Positions 9,072-16,307 of a stretch of DNA of 16,682 nt are shown piece after piece. The stretch is from contig CBFDTI010000027.1 of assembly GCA_965612795.1 (NCBI GenBank), positions 1 through 16,682 of the forward strand, in the 5' to 3' direction. The position numbers and the translations under genes are program-made. This DNA is from an uncultured bacterium. GTDB taxonomy: Bacteria; Hydrothermota; UBA3073; NMUJ01. Every line of letters starts with the position of its first letter. The stretch's first letter is position 1. The notes beneath the pieces were generated by a model that had not been told where the DNA came from, searched no databases, and saw only the letters and a list, made by a program, of their open reading frames with translations.

Positions 9072-9806
9072 ATGGGATTGGAAACAATACGGGTTGACGT
9101 GCGTAAGGTGCTCCAACCTTACCTCGATAAGATTATCACTAAAATAGGGCGTGAAAACATTGTCTCCATAATACTTTATGGAAGTGCTACAGGTGAGGAT
9201 TATATTCCAGGGCGTTCTGATATTAATCTACTCATAGTGGTAAAAGATATCGATTTTGATCACCTACGCGCAATAATCCCAATAGTGCTTAAAGGTATCA
9301 AAAAAAGGATACCACCACCGCTTATCGTACGTCCCCCATATATAGAGAGGTCAGTTGACGTATTTCCTATCGAGTTTTTGGAGATGCGTGATACACGTGT
9401 CGTAATATACGGAGAGGATTTGCTTGCCAACGTGGAGCCCACGCGCGAACAGCTACGACTTGAATGTGAAGAAAAAATAAAGGGGCAACTACTGACTATA
9501 AGGAGTGCATACATTGAAAACGGTAACTCACCCAAAACCTTGCGTAACTTATTGATACGTTCGTTTGCAGCAATTATACCAGTGCTTAGGCAACTACTTA
9601 GGTTAAAGGGGTTACAGCCGCCTGTATCACGGGATGCGGTGATAAACAAGGTTGCGGAACAGTTCAACATCATAGATGCGGATACTTTCATAAAGCTACT
9701 ACAACTGCGGCGGGGGATATCGTTTACGTCTATGGAACTTATAGGTTTGTTCGAATCGTATCATCGTGAACTTGAAAAGCTTGCAGATATAGCGGATAGT
9801 ATCTGA
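9072..9806 (+). CDS. Pol-beta-superfamily nucleotidyltransferase-domain protein with helical C-terminus
   Basis: SIILYGSA-x8-SDINLLIVV (GS...DxN variant), DVFPIEFLEM, VIYGEDLL, LRLECE. Confidence 0.85.
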   Translation: MGLETIRVDVRKVLQPYLDKIITKIGRENIVSIILYGSATGEDYIPGRSDINLLIVVKDIDFDHLRAIIPIVLKGIKKRIPPPLIVRPPYIERSVDVFPIEFLEMRDTRVVIYGEDLLANVEPTREQLRLECEEKIKGQLLTIRSAYIENGNSPKTLRNLLIRSFAAIIPVLRQLLRLKGLQPPVSRDAVINKVAEQFNIIDADTFIKLLQLRRGISFTSMELIGLFESYHRELEKLADIADSI

Positions 9807-10354
9807 TGGAACGCATCAGCTCCGTACTTTTACGTGGTGTACTGGCCGTACTCGTGGTAACCGTTGTCATAGTGGGGTTGTATTACTTCTATACGCATCA
9901 GGAGGTGCGGCAACTTGAATCCCTCAAACAGAACATGGATACCCTTCATAGTGCATTGCTGGAGTTTGCATTAGCTACTGGTGGTTACTATCCCGCACGT
10001 TTGGATATACCCATAAAGGATGTGGCTCGTTCCATAGGGTTGAATGTGAAGGATCCCCGTTCGGTTACTGGTGGTAAAGATCCTGCTACAGCTGCTGATA
10101 TACACGAAAGCAAGGGGTTCTGCCTATTGCCATCAGATTTTGCTAACCCATTCAATGCTCACGAGATAGCGGTGATGACAGTCAGAGGGGTACGTGATTA
10201 CCCACGGACTCCTGGAGTAGTCTTATATATACCGCTGGAAGTTAAACGTAACTATACAACTGCATTCAAAATAATGGGGATAGGGCCACAGGGCCCTATC
10301 GATTATGTAATCGAGGAGAGTGCCATCCTACGGCGACCACCGGAAAAAATTTAG
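9806..10354 (+). CDS. Membrane-anchored type IV pilin/pseudopilin-like protein
   Basis: TGATG coupling to the NTase. RG followed by a long hydrophobic helix, then SLKQNMDTLHSALLEF...GGYYP and LLP..FANPF, typical of pilin alpha-helix/loop segments. Confidence 0.55.
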   Translation: MERISSVLLRGVLAVLVVTVVIVGLYYFYTHQEVRQLESLKQNMDTLHSALLEFALATGGYYPARLDIPIKDVARSIGLNVKDPRSVTGGKDPATAADIHESKGFCLLPSDFANPFNAHEIAVMTVRGVRDYPRTPGVVLYIPLEVKRNYTTAFKIMGIGPQGPIDYVIEESAILRRPPEKI

Positions 10355-12162
10355 TGTAGTTCATCGGATAAACCGGATAGCCCAAGTTCGTTCAGTTTAG
10401 ATTCTGTAGGTACACCTTCTTTGTTCCAACCCCTTATCTCGTAGTAGAGATCTAGCATCTTCTCAAATTTATCACGCGGTATTATCTCACCCTTTGCGGG
10501 GCCATCTTCGATATGTTCCTCGAAGAACCTCGCCGGTAAAGTATCATCTTTACGTGTGAACCCCTCACGTAGGTTGAATATACGGACAAGGTTCCAGATA
10601 CGTTCACCTAGTTTCACATAGTCGTCGGCCCCCATCTCAAACCCCGTATCCTTTGTGATGAGTTCGGCGAACTCATCCTCACTTATTGGCATAAAGTCAC
10701 ACACTACTAACGAATAGGCGGCAGCACGTTCATCTTGTACATAACGTACGAAGTGCGCTAACTGTTCAGGTGAGTGCTTATCTACCTTGCCGTAGAGTTC
10801 AGCACGTGCTGTCCATGCACGTTGGTGGCAGCCACCACGATCTGCGGTAGCAAACGCTAATGCCATACCCCATGATGCACGTGGATCGACACCTGCAATC
10901 TCAAGCCCCTTTACGTGGATGGCAAATTTTTCGCTACCTTTACCTATTTGAGCGGCAGCTCTTTTAACCCCGCCTGTAAACAGCTCGCCAATACCGCGTT
11001 TGTAGGCTACACTTTTGATGAATTCTATCATTGCGTCACCGTTACCCCAATGTAGAGGGATCTCGCTTGATATGAGGCCACGCTCGTAACATTCCATCGC
11101 AAACCCGGTAATATTGGCCATGCTAATAGCATCTACACCCAAGTCGTTACATAGTGTGTGTGCATAGACGATATCCTCATAGCTGAAGATACCGAGGTTA
11201 CAGCCAAACAATGCAGTAGGCTCATATTCTGGTACCTCGTACGTCTTACCAGCGTATTCACCCTTTGGTATACGGGTGTAGTTAGTACATACAAACGGAC
11301 ATGAGTAGCAACCGCGTTTACCTTGTAGCATACCTTTTTCTATCAACACCTGTGGTACGAGTTCGATTATCCTTGCATCCCACTTACCACCATAATTGTA
11401 GAACGGTAATACACCACCGTCGATACCTTCCCATATGCAGTTAAGTGTACCTATCTTGTGGCGTTTCATACGTACTGGGTGTTTACGTAGTTTCTGGTTG
11501 AGCTTGACCACAAGTTGACGAAATCCATCCGCATCATGATAGTTGATCCCACCCGTACCTTGTACGACGAGCGCCTTGAGGTTCTTGCTACCCATAACCG
11601 TACCTGTGCCGCCACGACCGGCTTGTCGCCCTTTATCGAAACTTATGCATGCAAAGGTGACAAGGTTCTCACCTGCAGGACCTATCACACCTACGGATGC
11701 ATCCTTGTATCTACCATGCAGTATATCATCAACCTCAAATATGCGTTTACCCCATAGATCGGTAGCATCTTTTATCTCAGCACCACCATCAAATATGTGT
11801 AAATATACCGGTTTGGGTGCTTTACCACGGATTATGACGAAATCGAAACCCGCCTTTTTGAGTTTAGCACCAAAGTTACCCCCAATGTGTGAATCGTTAA
11901 ACGTACCAGTATGGGGTGACTTGACGACTATGGCCCATCTACCAGATGACGGCATAGTCGTACCGGTAAGTGGGCCCGTGAGCAAAATGAGCAAACTGTC
12001 GGGTGACAATGGGTCGAGCTTTGGTGGTAGCTCCTCAAGCAGTATCCTTGCACCCAATCCCTTACCACCAAGGAAGTCACGTAGCCAATCCCACGGTACC
12101 GGATTGATCTTGATTTTACCTGTGGAGAGATCCACATCGAGATACTTACCTGTATAGCCCAT
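10351..12162 (-). CDS. aor: Aldehyde:ferredoxin oxidoreductase family protein (probably tungsten-containing)
   Basis: KSPHTG, GPAGEN, AGRGGTGTVMGSKNLKA, CxxCxxxC (CYSCPFVC), PEYE, DLGVD, DRGGCH, distal Cys in VVCDF, DDTLPARF, YYEIRGW. Confidence 0.96.
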   Translation of the reverse strand: MGYTGKYLDVDLSTGKIKINPVPWDWLRDFLGGKGLGARILLEELPPKLDPLSPDSLLILLTGPLTGTTMPSSGRWAIVVKSPHTGTFNDSHIGGNFGAKLKKAGFDFVIIRGKAPKPVYLHIFDGGAEIKDATDLWGKRIFEVDDILHGRYKDASVGVIGPAGENLVTFACISFDKGRQAGRGGTGTVMGSKNLKALVVQGTGGINYHDADGFRQLVVKLNQKLRKHPVRMKRHKIGTLNCIWEGIDGGVLPFYNYGGKWDARIIELVPQVLIEKGMLQGKRGCYSCPFVCTNYTRIPKGEYAGKTYEVPEYEPTALFGCNLGIFSYEDIVYAHTLCNDLGVDAISMANITGFAMECYERGLISSEIPLHWGNGDAMIEFIKSVAYKRGIGELFTGGVKRAAAQIGKGSEKFAIHVKGLEIAGVDPRASWGMALAFATADRGGCHQRAWTARAELYGKVDKHSPEQLAHFVRYVQDERAAAYSLVVCDFMPISEDEFAELITKDTGFEMGADDYVKLGERIWNLVRIFNLREGFTRKDDTLPARFFEEHIEDGPAKGEIIPRDKFEKMLDLYYEIRGWNKEGVPTESKLNELGLSGLSDELH

Positions 12163-12275: not shown

Positions 12276-12312
12276 TTGATTTTTGACAATACGTAATATT
12301 TTTCAGTAGTAT
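12276..12312 (+). promoter_or_regulatory. Putative promoter(s): TTGATT-N15-TATTTT (12276-12302) overlapping TTGACA-N18-TAGTAT (12283-12312)
   Basis: Read directly; immediately upstream of ATG 12317. Confidence 0.55.
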
Positions 12313-12316
12313 TGGG

Positions 12317-12433
12317 ATGGCGAGAAGCAAGTCGAAGCACAAACGTAGACGCCATAAGATAAGGCTTAAGTGGAAGCGACGCAAGAAGAAACAGAAGCTA
12401 CTGCAGAAACTATCAGAGAAAACAGCTGGGTGA
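12317..12433 (+). CDS. Unannotated 38-aa highly basic protein
   Basis: MARSKSKHKRRRHKIRLKWKRRKKKQKLLQKLSEKTAG*; 19/38 residues are K/R. Sits directly behind a promoter, and its TGA overlaps the next ATG (TGATG). Confidence 0.7.
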   Translation: MARSKSKHKRRRHKIRLKWKRRKKKQKLLQKLSEKTAG

Positions 12434-12891
12434 TGGCCAAAGGTCGTATACCACCGGATGAACGTATGGAGAAAGGGCCGGTCGTTGTCGTGGAGTGTGA
12501 AGAAGAGATACCCTGTAACCCTTGTGTTAAAGCATGTCCAGTGGGTGCGATAACGATTGAAGGTAATATCAACAACTTACCGGTGGTGGATTTCGATGTA
12601 TGTACAGGATGCGGGCTATGTATTGCAGGATGTCCGGGGTTGGCAATTTTTGTGGTACACAAAAACTATCGACCTGACAGAGGTGAGGGGTTGGTGATGC
12701 TACCGTACGAGTTTATACCATTACCTAAGAAAGGTGACAAGGTATGGGGAGTGGATCGTAACGGCAAAGTCGTCTGTGAAGCTACCGTCGAACGTGTACT
12801 CAATACACCGAAACAGGATCGTACTGCGATCATATCAGTGGTGGTACCGAGTGACCTCGTTATGGAGGTTAGAAATATAAAACTAAAGTAG
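12433..12891 (+). CDS. 2x[4Fe-4S] ferredoxin-domain protein with C-terminal beta domain (PdhF-like subunit family)
   Basis: PPDERMEKGPVVVVECEEEIPCNPCVKAC and CTGCGLCIAGCPGLAIF, plus LPYEFIPLP. True start taken as ATG 12433 (coupled to the micro-ORF) rather than GTG 12370. Confidence 0.88.
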   Translation: MAKGRIPPDERMEKGPVVVVECEEEIPCNPCVKACPVGAITIEGNINNLPVVDFDVCTGCGLCIAGCPGLAIFVVHKNYRPDRGEGLVMLPYEFIPLPKKGDKVWGVDRNGKVVCEATVERVLNTPKQDRTAIISVVVPSDLVMEVRNIKLK

Positions 12892-12992: not shown

Positions 12993-13082
12993 GGAGGGGT
13001 GGCCGAGTGGACGAAGGCGCCTGACTCGAAATCAGGTTCTCCGCCATAGGCGGGGACGGGGGTTCGAATCCCTCCCCCTCCG
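12993..13082 (+). tRNA. tRNA-Ser(CGA), class II, 3' CCA not encoded
   Basis: Acceptor GGAGGGG/CCCCTCC, D-arm GCC..GGC, anticodon arm CCTGA-CT-CGA-AA-TCAGG, long variable stem TCTCCGCC-ATA-GGCGGGGA, T-loop TTCGAAT, discriminator G followed by GTT. Confidence 0.96.
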
Positions 13083-13163
13083 GTTTATATTAGGGGGTAG
13101 AAATTTTCGTAACCCGTGAACAGGTTCCAGATACCCAACTTGAAGCAACCAAAAGGGGCAGCT

Positions 13164-16100
13164 ATGATATGGTGGCTCATCGTCATAGGTATCAACTTTG
13201 GGCTTTTACGTAACCGTACGGCTGAACATACGTATGTGGTGCAGGAGAAGCTGAACCACCTTTTACGAATGTATCCTGAACTACGTAATTACTGGTCACG
13301 TCCGATGATACCGGGGTTGTTGGGTCGCCATCGTAAAGGTGACGTCGATACCGTTAAGGTGCTCGCTATAAGGGTGGAATTTATAGAGCATCCAGAGGAT
13401 TCGCTTGCTACAGGTAACGGAAAGTTCAGGTTAACGCCGAACAACGAACCGCCATTCGATACCGCTGGACATAATCTATACTTTGATCCTGCGCATACGA
13501 AACGATATTTTGAACATCTGCTCGAATTTATGCATAATTACTATTACGCTACATCACAAGGTAAGTTATGGATCGAATATAGGGTGGTACCGGATGCGGA
13601 AAGCTTAGCATACCAATTACCATATCAGATATACTACTATGGTGACCCTGACCACTACGTGGAGGGGTTGCTCACCCTACTACGTGACGCGTTGATAGCG
13701 TGTGACCTACAGGATACGGTTACGATGAGCAATTACGATGCGTTTATAGTGTTCCATCCAGGATGCTCGTGGCAAGCACAAGCAGCGTGGGGTGATACCC
13801 CTTATGATATACTTACCGGTTCCATAATAGGGTTGGATGGATACTTTGGTACACCTGTATATGTGGATGATAACTATCCGATTAATGCAGGCATAATAAT
13901 GTCGGAATCGGATTTCAAGCATGGGGTACCATCATTTTTACAGGGGGCGCTCGCACATGAGTTTGGTCACCTGCTGGGATTTTATGATTTATACGATGTG
14001 AGTGGCGAATGTGTAGGTATGGGAGGATGGGCGCTCATGGGTACAGGTAACTGGAACCTTATGGGGTTGTTACCGCCACACGTATCTGCATGGCATACTG
14101 AGAAAGCGGGCTGGATAGAGCCTATCGAAATACGACATGATACCATCATACAAATATATCGACGTGGTGGAAGGGATTGGACCAAACCCAAACTATTTCG
14201 TATACCGATAAATGCACATGAGTATTATCTGTTGGAGGTGCGGTTCGCATATGCTAACCCTGACACACACAAATACATTGAGATACATAGTGCGGATTCC
14301 ACATTGCATTACGATTCGAGTGGTGTACGTGTATGGAAGGATGGTGTATTAGTAAGGTTTGACGATTATGATTGGGGGTTACCATGTGACAGCATGCAGG
14401 GCGGGGTAGCCGTCTGGCACGTAGATTGTGACAAAATAGCACGTGATAGCTTATACAATCAGATAAATGCAGGGTGGCCCAAAGGCGTAGATCTCGAGGA
14501 AGCTGACGGTATACAGGATTTTGAACTCGGTTGGTATGATATCACAAATATAACGGCTGCATTTTATGGTACACCATGGGATCTGTTCTATTCACCCAGT
14601 GCACCTGAATTTACACCATGGACAGCACCCAATACAGATGCCAACCGTGGTGGTAAAACCCATATATGTATGGAGTTTGGGCCATCGGATACTTTGATGG
14701 AGGTAACGATAAGGTTTACGATGTTGCGTGAAGGGTTTCCACAGAAAGCGGTATCTTTCTATGACGTAGCGTCACCCATCGGATGGCAGTATAATGGTGG
14801 CAGTTACTGGGCGGTTGCGGGTATGGATACGATGTTACACGTGGGGAGTGGGTTTGGTGCGAGGCTTAGAGTTTATATGGGTGATTCGCTCATTTGGGAA
14901 CGTATAGTACCGGATTGTAACATATATGCATCACCAAGTGTCGGCGATGTCACAGGTGATGGTGTACCAGATATTGTATTACCTGTGTTCTATGCGTATG
15001 CTATGTATGACAAAGGGGTAACCAAGATCTGTGGGCTGAAGGAGGTGCTCAAAGATACCCTGCTGTACATCGAAGGTGCAATCTACGTGTGGGAGGTTGA
15101 TGGACATCCTGTGGATGGGTTCCCACAATATACTTTGGGTAGGATGGTAGCACCCGCATTGTTACACGATATGAATGGTGATGGAGATTGTGAAATCCTT
15201 GTGTGCAGTGACAACCACCTGTATGTTTTCGAGGGTGATGGCAGCATGGTGGGAGGGTTTCCCATGGACCTACCCCAATGGGTATGGGGTACACCGAATT
15301 ATTATCGTGATACCATTTATGTGCTGGCAGGCGATGGTGCATTGTATAAGATAGCGAACGATGGTACATTGTGTGGAAGGTACCTTGAACCTAAATTACC
15401 GTTCTCATCAAGCACACCAGTATGCGGTGATATCAATGGTGATGGTGAGATTGAGTGGGTAGTATTGCAACGGATGACTGCAATAGCGGTGCTGGATATT
15501 GCTGGTAACGTGTTGTGGCAACAGGAGCTACCAGACACCACGTTCTATTCGACGCCGGCTATCGGTGATATAGACGGCGACAGTTTACCCGAAATTGTAG
15601 TCACGGGGTTCCATAAGTTGATGGTATACAACCACAATGGTGCGATGAAGACAGGCTTTCCGGTGGAGTATGATCCCACAGGTATGAGCGAAGGGTCACC
15701 CGTCATCGTTGACCTGGATCGTGATGGTCAAAAGGAAATAATTGTGAGTTCGTCATCTGGTAAACTCTATGCGTTCGACTATCAAGGGGAATATGTCACA
15801 GGGTTTCCATTAGATATAGGGGTGGGTAGCTACAGTACGCCGTTGGTGATGGATATCGACAATAATGATAGGATAGAGCTCATCTTGGGTAATGACGACG
15901 GTGAGATAATGGTGTGGGAATTAGGTCGCCTAGCTACAATAGAATGGGGTATGCAGCACGGTAATGCAAACCATCTGGCAACGTATGAAGGATATATGGT
16001 ACAGCCATCGGGTGCAGATGTGTTCATGAGTGCACCCCTATATGTGTATCCCAATCCAGTAAAACGGTGGGCTAAGATACATTATACATTGGGTGAGGGT

Positions 16101-16307
16101 ACAAAACATGTGAAGATACAGATATTCAATACAGCGGGCGATCTGTTGCGTGAATTCAACGGTAAAGTGGTCGACCACGGTGCGGTAGATATGGAGTTAC
16201 CGATGACGGGGTTGACGAACGGTGTCTACATGCTCAGGGTGGAAGTAACGACTGACAAAGGTGAAACTCTACATAAATTTTATAAGTTTGCGATTGTGAG
16301 AGAGTAA
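13164..16307 (+). CDS. Secreted M6-family (immune inhibitor A-like) zinc metalloprotease with FG-GAP/VCBS repeats and a C-terminal T9SS-type/FlgD-Ig sorting domain
   Basis: VLAIRVEF, HEFGHLLGFYDLY (HExxH..D), WALMGTGNW Met-turn, EYYLLE, DLEEADG; six DxxGDG-type repeats; C-terminal YVYPNP..IFNTAG..GVY. Start at MIWWL (13164) after AAGGGG. Confidence 0.92.
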   Translation: MIWWLIVIGINFGLLRNRTAEHTYVVQEKLNHLLRMYPELRNYWSRPMIPGLLGRHRKGDVDTVKVLAIRVEFIEHPEDSLATGNGKFRLTPNNEPPFDTAGHNLYFDPAHTKRYFEHLLEFMHNYYYATSQGKLWIEYRVVPDAESLAYQLPYQIYYYGDPDHYVEGLLTLLRDALIACDLQDTVTMSNYDAFIVFHPGCSWQAQAAWGDTPYDILTGSIIGLDGYFGTPVYVDDNYPINAGIIMSESDFKHGVPSFLQGALAHEFGHLLGFYDLYDVSGECVGMGGWALMGTGNWNLMGLLPPHVSAWHTEKAGWIEPIEIRHDTIIQIYRRGGRDWTKPKLFRIPINAHEYYLLEVRFAYANPDTHKYIEIHSADSTLHYDSSGVRVWKDGVLVRFDDYDWGLPCDSMQGGVAVWHVDCDKIARDSLYNQINAGWPKGVDLEEADGIQDFELGWYDITNITAAFYGTPWDLFYSPSAPEFTPWTAPNTDANRGGKTHICMEFGPSDTLMEVTIRFTMLREGFPQKAVSFYDVASPIGWQYNGGSYWAVAGMDTMLHVGSGFGARLRVYMGDSLIWERIVPDCNIYASPSVGDVTGDGVPDIVLPVFYAYAMYDKGVTKICGLKEVLKDTLLYIEGAIYVWEVDGHPVDGFPQYTLGRMVAPALLHDMNGDGDCEILVCSDNHLYVFEGDGSMVGGFPMDLPQWVWGTPNYYRDTIYVLAGDGALYKIANDGTLCGRYLEPKLPFSSSTPVCGDINGDGEIEWVVLQRMTAIAVLDIAGNVLWQQELPDTTFYSTPAIGDIDGDSLPEIVVTGFHKLMVYNHNGAMKTGFPVEYDPTGMSEGSPVIVDLDRDGQKEIIVSSSSGKLYAFDYQGEYVTGFPLDIGVGSYSTPLVMDIDNNDRIELILGNDDGEIMVWELGRLATIEWGMQHGNANHLATYEGYMVQPSGADVFMSAPLYVYPNPVKRWAKIHYTLGEGTKHVKIQIFNTAGDLLREFNGKVVDHGAVDMELPMTGLTNGVYMLRVEVTTDKGETLHKFYKFAIVRE
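14943..15890 (+). repeat. Protein-level FG-GAP/VCBS Ca-binding repeats (beta-propeller) in the M6 protease
   Basis: GDVTGDGVPDIV, HDMNGDGDCEIL, GDINGDGEIEWV, GDIDGDSLPEIV, VDLDRDGQKEII, MDIDNNDRIELI, interspersed with GFP motifs. Confidence 0.85.

Follow-up and report, generated by a model that had tools for sequence, protein, structure and literature searches.

MARSKSK, a conserved family of polycationic microproteins in WOR-3 bacteria with a possible rRNA or ribosome target

A 38-codon open reading frame (ORF) in the genome of an uncultured bacterium is, judging from comparison with its homologues, a real protein-coding gene under purifying selection, and its product belongs to a previously undescribed family of polycationic microproteins of 31–92 residues, the MARSKSK family. 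We tentatively favour, with confidence somewhat short of even, rRNA or the ribosome as the most likely target of these helical peptides. The ORF lies in a 16,682-nt stretch of DNA, here called the window. The features of its immediate surroundings are listed below; G001 is the sister genome.

10351..12162 (−): aldehyde:ferredoxin oxidoreductase gene, divergent, upstream (Pfam AFOR_N, AFOR_C); not the upstream neighbour in G001
12283..12312 (+): sigma-70-like promoter match, TTGACA-18-TAGTAT (consensus match only, 10/12 positions)
12317..12433 (+): polybasic microprotein gene (MARSKSK family), 38 codons, TGA stop included (ORF translation, homologues, selection)
12370..12432 (+): GTG-started acidic extension of the ferredoxin ORF, probably spurious (substitutions, homologues)
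12431..12435 (+): TGATG stop/start overlap of the microprotein and ferredoxin-domain genes (sequence; identical in G001)
12433..12891 (+): 2x[4Fe-4S] ferredoxin-domain protein, 152 aa, ATG start preferred (Pfam Fer4_7, Fer4, Fer4_10)
12993..13082 (+): tRNA-Ser(CGA), ~100 nt 3' of the ferredoxin-domain gene (Rfam RF00005, 59.3 bits; ARAGORN)
13116-16307 (+): FG-GAP-repeat protein of 1063 aa; HExxH region resembling M6 peptidases; C-terminal T9SS sorting domain

The microprotein gene and the overlapping ferredoxin-domain ORF

The microprotein ORF extends from an ATG at 12317 to a TGA at 12431-12433 and encodes a product of 38 aa, MARSKSKHKRRRHKIRLKWKRRKKKQKLLQKLSEKTAG. The initial annotation had pointed to a highly basic ORF here, and a recount of the residues (12 K, 7 R, 2 H and 1 E) agrees with it. 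The TGA overlaps the ATG (12433-35) of the ferredoxin-domain gene, as had also been noted, and this TGATG arrangement suggests that translation of the ferredoxin-domain gene is coupled to that of the microprotein gene.

A further claim was that the gene has its own promoter. The TTGACA-18-TAGTAT match exists; it ends 4 nt 5' of the microprotein ATG, with no Shine-Dalgarno sequence in between. G001 does not conserve it: its similarity to the window starts 3 nt before the ATG, and the sequences further upstream are unrelated. The region contains three promoter-like sites of such quality vs 1.7 expected from shuffles. With the usual spacing between a -10 element and the transcription start, transcripts would begin on the ATG or shortly after it, and an own promoter is therefore no more than plausible. 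In both genomes of this genus (the window genome and G001) the ATG lacks a preceding Shine-Dalgarno sequence; among 31 homologues, 21 have GGAG/GAGG 4–18 nt 5' of the ATG and three more have it 2–3 nt closer. Codon usage gave no signal as a proxy for expression and is uninformative on this point, because the ribosomal protein genes of this genome sit at the genome average. A G001-like variant spans the ORF in contigs from two metatranscriptome runs, including one of 9.6 kb; these contigs attest to the presence of the sequence, not to transcription, starts or strand.

In the ferredoxin frame a longer ORF of 173 aa (MEATQEETE...) can be read from a GTG at 12370, and it overlaps the 3' end of the microprotein ORF by 64 bases. 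The public protein collection carries this 173-aa call and lacks the 38-aa peptide, and the microprotein gene was thus hidden. The 173-aa form belongs to a 28-member cluster; among the 15 members listed, 13 are 173 aa long and one is an NCBI form of 152 aa (P0173). Three observations argue for the 152-aa start. The first is the pattern of substitutions. Relative to G001, the microprotein frame has three synonymous codon changes and one non-synonymous change, and the ferredoxin gene read from its ATG has 24 and three, whereas the extension frame has zero synonymous and three non-synonymous changes. When 14 public sequences of the 173-aa form are compared, 5/20 positions are variable in the extension vs 10/152 in the body (Fisher p=0.018). 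Four of the five variable extension positions are T/A exchanges; the single-base changes behind the variable positions would fall on third positions of microprotein codons, as is confirmed for the two seen in G001. Second, the conserved N-terminus that more distant homologues of the ferredoxin protein have of their own, xTGIxTxxDL, finds no counterpart in the extension. Third, the homologue P0057 (151 aa) begins at the position equivalent to 12433. The extension, MEATQEETEATAETIRENSWV, is therefore probably spurious. The suspicion that a spurious acidic extension masks the ORF was most likely right, and the more distant ferredoxin homologues do not share the MEATQEETE segment.

These data also bear on whether the microprotein is an independent protein at all. 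The region could instead be the N-terminal extension of the ferredoxin protein, as gene callers report it, or a leader/uORF that delivers ribosomes to the ferredoxin gene, a role that would suit the TGATG overlap and the missing Shine-Dalgarno sequence in this genus. We consider either very improbable: changes in the extension frame are exclusively non-synonymous and those in the microprotein frame mainly synonymous, the extension is not shared by ferredoxin homologues, and the family is kept in at least four other, unrelated gene contexts. Because these contexts are devoid of any ferredoxin gene, the microprotein does not act as a leader for it.

Gene callers systematically overlook proteins that are tiny and basic, and in this case the gene was overwritten by the wrong start of its neighbour. 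The annotation changes that follow are a move of the ferredoxin-domain start to 12433 and the addition of two micro-genes, the one described here and the bS22 gene described below. The ferredoxin-domain protein itself (12433-12891) is part of a large family, with 1272 proteins found at E ≤ 1e-5; the other members have an additional conserved segment at the N-terminus, which is missing in this genus. The protein may be a redox partner of the divergent aldehyde:ferredoxin oxidoreductase, an adjacency that is not kept in G001.

Distribution, conservation and predicted shape of the family

The initial annotation had proposed conservation of the ORF in relatives and dN/dS as checks, and both speak for a gene. 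When 41 related genomes were searched in six frames, every match started with MARSK[ST]K, the exceptions being three chance hits and two copies that lack a standard start. An 8-row profile applied at E ≤ 0.01 found the family in 67 of 272 WOR-3 genomes, in 51/181 high-quality genomes and in 34/110 genera; the remaining 205 WOR-3 genomes, including the near-complete G026 and G038, gave no match. Each positive genome has a single MARSK-type match, and the five extra weak hits in G014 are to a low-complexity tail. The few further matches come from MAGs whose labels read Calditrichota, Nitrospirae, Deltaproteobacteria or unclassified. HMMER, run exhaustively over 1.84 billion representative proteins, returned 33 cluster representatives at E ≤ 1e-3, with no E-value under 1e-10; all 33 have the N-terminal motif or a close variant, either at the start or internally, behind a start called further upstream. 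Where the source names family members, the name is 'hypothetical protein'. A search with a 47-aa family member, which returned one candidate and scored none, found no longer or fused forms and is weak evidence on that point.

The family N-terminus reads MARSK[ST]KxKRxRH and the core KRxRH..LK.KRRKE.KK. M1, R3, K5 and K7 are invariant in a 30-row alignment, and A2, K9, R10, R12, R21, R22 and K27 are present in at least 90% of its rows. The Lys/Arg content of the core is 48–67%, and aromatic and aliphatic positions are conserved within the Lys/Arg-rich helix. After about residue 30 the sequences diverge into variable, often acidic or polar tails, which bring the members to lengths of 31–92 aa.

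Selection was estimated over the first 27 codons for the 22 pairs with unsaturated synonymous sites. Thirteen pairs have dN/dS values of 0.02–0.20, two have a value of 0 (no non-synonymous change) and seven fall at 0.20–0.39, so that most close pairs lie in the range of 0.02–0.2, a sign of purifying selection. When the same 27 codons are read in either shifted frame, pN exceeds pS.

AlphaFold2, run with the 30-row alignment, predicts an extended N-terminal stub (residues 1–6) followed by one long α-helix (residues 7–37) at a mean pLDDT of 90.5. Nucleic-acid binding, which had been suggested for the peptide on the basis of its composition, fits both the composition and this predicted single helix.

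Relationship to bS22 and other tiny basic ribosomal proteins

The obvious label for a peptide of this kind is bS22, and an intersubunit-bridge peptide of the bS22/mS38/eL41 type had been put forward for it. The resemblance is real in several respects. Like bS22 (8FMW chain V, 7JIL chain 5, 9I5V chain 10) and mS38, the microprotein is tiny (about 30 aa), helical and usually unannotated, has an invariant N-terminus and consists of Lys and Arg to more than 50%; like that of bS22, its gene sometimes lies within stable-RNA operons. Unlike these proteins, the MARSKSK family has no detectable sequence relationship to bS22/mS38, is patchy where bS22 is near-universal, and has longer, variable tails of up to 92 aa in total length.

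Scanning the genome for short ORFs in which K and R make up 30% or more of the residues uncovered the actual bS22 gene on another contig (C92:1267..1356, −). This separate ORF encodes 29 aa, 66% of them K+R, and matches bS22 of Borrelia burgdorferi (8fmw_V) at E 2.7e-6, the first 12 residues being identical. Weaker matches are to bS22 of Flavobacterium johnsoniae (7jil_5, E 0.026), to a Porphyromonas chain and to mS38 chains (E 0.068 and above); the match to COX24_C is weak and below the cut-off (E 0.037). The gene has a GGAGG ribosome-binding site and sits between tRNA-Cys and tRNA-Arg. It too is unannotated, and the public protein collection has no entry with exactly this sequence. The type is found in 238/272 WOR-3 genomes (161/181 of high quality), and a comparison of the two per-genome tables, one of family hits and one of bS22 hits, puts it in 63 of the 67 genomes that are positive for the MARSKSK family (exceptions G007, G057, G223 and G227).

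The bS22/mS38/eL41 bridge proposal was therefore not supported, and the identification of the microprotein as bS22/mS38 was rejected, since the genome already encodes a recognisable bS22 elsewhere. Direct comparisons agree. An hhalign comparison of the MARSKSK profile with a WOR-3 bS22 profile gave a probability of 1.1%; PF08213 (COX24_C) matched nothing in the whole window genome at E ≤ 10, the microprotein ORF included; and neither the microprotein (phmmer) nor the family profile picked out a bS22 or mS38 chain among PDB sequences, a search in which the C92 ORF, as positive control, does match. In five Bacteroidota genomes (16S probe), the family profile, PF08213 and DUF6800 gave only chance hits.

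In a weaker form of the idea, the peptide would be a second, diverged copy of bS22 or a functional stand-in for it, competing for the bS22 pocket between helices h44 and h45. Its size, charge and helical prediction match descriptions of bS22 in parts of PMC7797042 and 10.1101/2023.04.16.537070, and a COX24_C-bearing cluster is among its distant ESM Atlas look-alikes, albeit at a score of 0.83, below the lead threshold of 0.9. The profile comparison, the silence of PF08213 and of the PDB bS22/mS38 chains, and the co-occurrence of true bS22 make this highly unlikely. Parts of PMC7797042, PMC12123416 and 10.1101/2023.04.16.537070 place bS22 between h44 and h45, touching 23S rRNA. As this pocket has a gene of its own in these genomes, the MARSKSK peptide, if ribosomal, would sit at a different site.

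In the family libraries, hmmscan returned zero Pfam families for the microprotein ORF at E ≤ 10, and Pfam, NCBIfam and PHROGs held nothing for the ORF or the 30 aligned members beyond chance hits (E ~0.1) in one or two members. Against PDB sequences at E ≤ 10 the family profile met only eL37 (E 1.4–1.5), and the peptide alone met nothing. In the portions of the bS22, bL37 and bTHX literature that were covered, we found no description of a MARSKSK-type family and no text with the string MARSKSK. The family is thus defined without a counterpart in Pfam, NCBIfam, the PDB or that literature. DUF6800 (PF20607), a look-alike from the ESM Atlas, was discarded as well: its model gave no match on the ORF, and in the peptide's own genome it met only an unrelated 303-aa frame (E 0.076).

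Replacement of a known small ribosomal protein is another reading that was rejected. Canonical bL32 is encoded at C7:15920-16081 (PF01783, 69.3 bits), and its model is silent on the ORF at E ≤ 10; the same genome scan contains bL34, bL36, bL35, bL33 and bS21, identified by eye from their sequences. Since all six are present, the microprotein does not replace any of them. The basic N-terminal tails of bL32 and bL20, which thread into 23S rRNA, contain what we take to be a similar S-K-x-K-R-x-R-H run followed by L-K. Unlike bL32, the microprotein has neither a zinc ribbon nor a globular part, and we treat the resemblance to these tails as compositional.

Short cationic helices that fill rRNA pockets include bL37 (mycobacteria), bTHX (Thermus and relatives), eL41 (eukaryotes/archaea) and bL38 (Bacteroidia). 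The microprotein is likened to them by description; the family profile, searched against PDB sequences at E ≤ 10, retrieved none of the four. Our account of the properties of such peptides draws partly on portions of PMC7797042, 10.1101/2023.04.16.537070, PMC12123416 and PMC11851116. According to a portion of 10.1101/2023.04.16.537070, an N-terminal extension of uL30 replaces bL37 in Borrelia. The uL30 of the window genome is 65 aa long. Set beside the E. coli and Thermus proteins, it presumably lacks a Borrelia-type extension, and for this reason a bL37-like pocket could, speculatively, be free in this genome. It is possible, although we hold it to be rather doubtful, that WOR-3 and a few related lineages have a second ribosomal micro-protein besides bS22, one that occupies a different rRNA pocket (e.g. 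the bL37/uL30-extension pocket) and has been repeatedly gained or lost. If so, sister lineages differ in the make-up of their ribosomes.

Gene neighbourhoods and possible targets

The surroundings of the gene vary between lineages. In 17 of 31 loci the microprotein directly follows an 85-aa protein that resembles EF-Tu domain 2 (21.7–29.9 bits vs a cut-off of 30.3), and at most of these loci an AddB-like protein (ADDB_N; TIGR02773), the commonest downstream neighbour, comes next. Three of the 31 loci have the microprotein between Era and an MBL-fold hydrolase. In four genomes of one family (two of the 31 loci and two further genomes) a tmRNA gene begins 3–22 nt 3' of the ORF on the same strand, and in two Calditrichota-like MAGs the gene lies just after tRNA-Gly. 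The ferredoxin-domain neighbour is found in both genomes of this genus; the remaining loci are varied. Stable-RNA genes adjoin 3 of 33 family loci scanned, a count that leaves out the bS22 locus L191, plus three further tmRNA loci (G009, G011 and G015), and most loci scanned have no stable-RNA gene within ~1.5 kb.

An obligate partnership with the EF-Tu-domain-2-like protein was considered and rejected. The protein occurs in 123/272 WOR-3 genomes and is absent from the window genome and G001, and in eight of eight inspected genomes that have it but lack the family, no small basic ORF follows it; this distribution marks it as a lineage-specific neighbour. The stand-alone protein is 84–88 aa long (two ORFs are called at 106 aa) and has no NCBIfam or PDB sequence match.

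The AddB-like subunit of a helicase-nuclease, next in the commonest gene order, raises the question of DNA. A nucleoid-associated or protamine-like peptide that coats or compacts DNA, or aids a DNA-repair machine, would be in keeping with a Lys/Arg-rich core predicted to form a single helix, and the patchy distribution suits an accessory chromatin protein. The AddB-like neighbour is, however, lineage-specific and absent in the window genome, and the invariant N-terminal motif, together with the conserved aromatic and aliphatic positions, argues for one specific docking site. Histone-like Lys-rich proteins typically carry repeats; the microprotein is short and free of repeats, each positive genome has a single MARSK-type match, and Pfam, NCBIfam and PHROGs gave no match to a known DNA-binding motif or family. 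A DNA-binding role appears improbable on these grounds.

The loci near stable-RNA genes could point to RNA. One possibility is that the peptide, while no stable part of the ribosome, binds some other structured RNA or is a general RNA chaperone or assembly factor, serving for instance tmRNA, tRNA precursors or the maturation of rRNA. The closeness of the ORF to tmRNA in four genomes, its position after tRNA-Gly in two MAGs and after Era, a GTPase of 16S maturation, in 3/31 loci are consistent with such a factor, and a patchy distribution would fit one that is dispensable. Yet stable-RNA contexts make up a minority of loci and no known chaperone family was matched, and we regard a role of this kind as unlikely.

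The reading that we prefer is that the cationic helix inserts into structured RNA, most probably rRNA, and that the protein would be an accessory peptide of the ribosome, or one associated with it, akin to bS22, bL37, bTHX and eL41; its site would differ from the bS22 pocket, for which these genomes have a bS22 of their own. We infer a role in sequence-specific docking to a structured nucleic acid, and four points lead us to rate rRNA or the ribosome as the most likely target: the invariant N-terminus; the aromatic and aliphatic positions conserved within a Lys/Arg helix; a likeness to bS22 in size, in shape and, at some loci, in a place within stable-RNA operons; and the Era, tmRNA and EF-Tu-like neighbours. 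Counted against it are the patchiness of the family, its variable and partly DNA-related neighbours, the failure to match any ribosomal peptide in the PDB and, in this genus, the missing Shine-Dalgarno sequence and the awkward position of the promoter-like site. With 205 of the 272 WOR-3 genomes giving no match, the family cannot be a core ribosomal component. If ribosomal, it would be a lineage-specific component of the bacterial ribosome, and ribosome composition would vary within one phylum. If not, it would still be an abundant-looking, selectively maintained, putative nucleic-acid-binding microprotein of an uncultured phylum.

Two minor observations concern starts. The members upstream of tmRNA in G011 and G015 (L003 1492-1572; L004), which stop 3 nt before the tmRNA gene, have no ATG, GTG or TTG and read L-A-E-R-S-K-S-K from a CTG; either CTG serves as the start or these are decaying copies. 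In the window, four ORFs of 181–244 aa are without a Pfam match at E ≤ 1e-5 (9072-10354 (+), 947-1567 (−), 2265-2807 (−)). The ORF at 947-1567 overlaps a YkuD-domain ORF by ~140 bases, and one of the two starts may therefore be mis-set.
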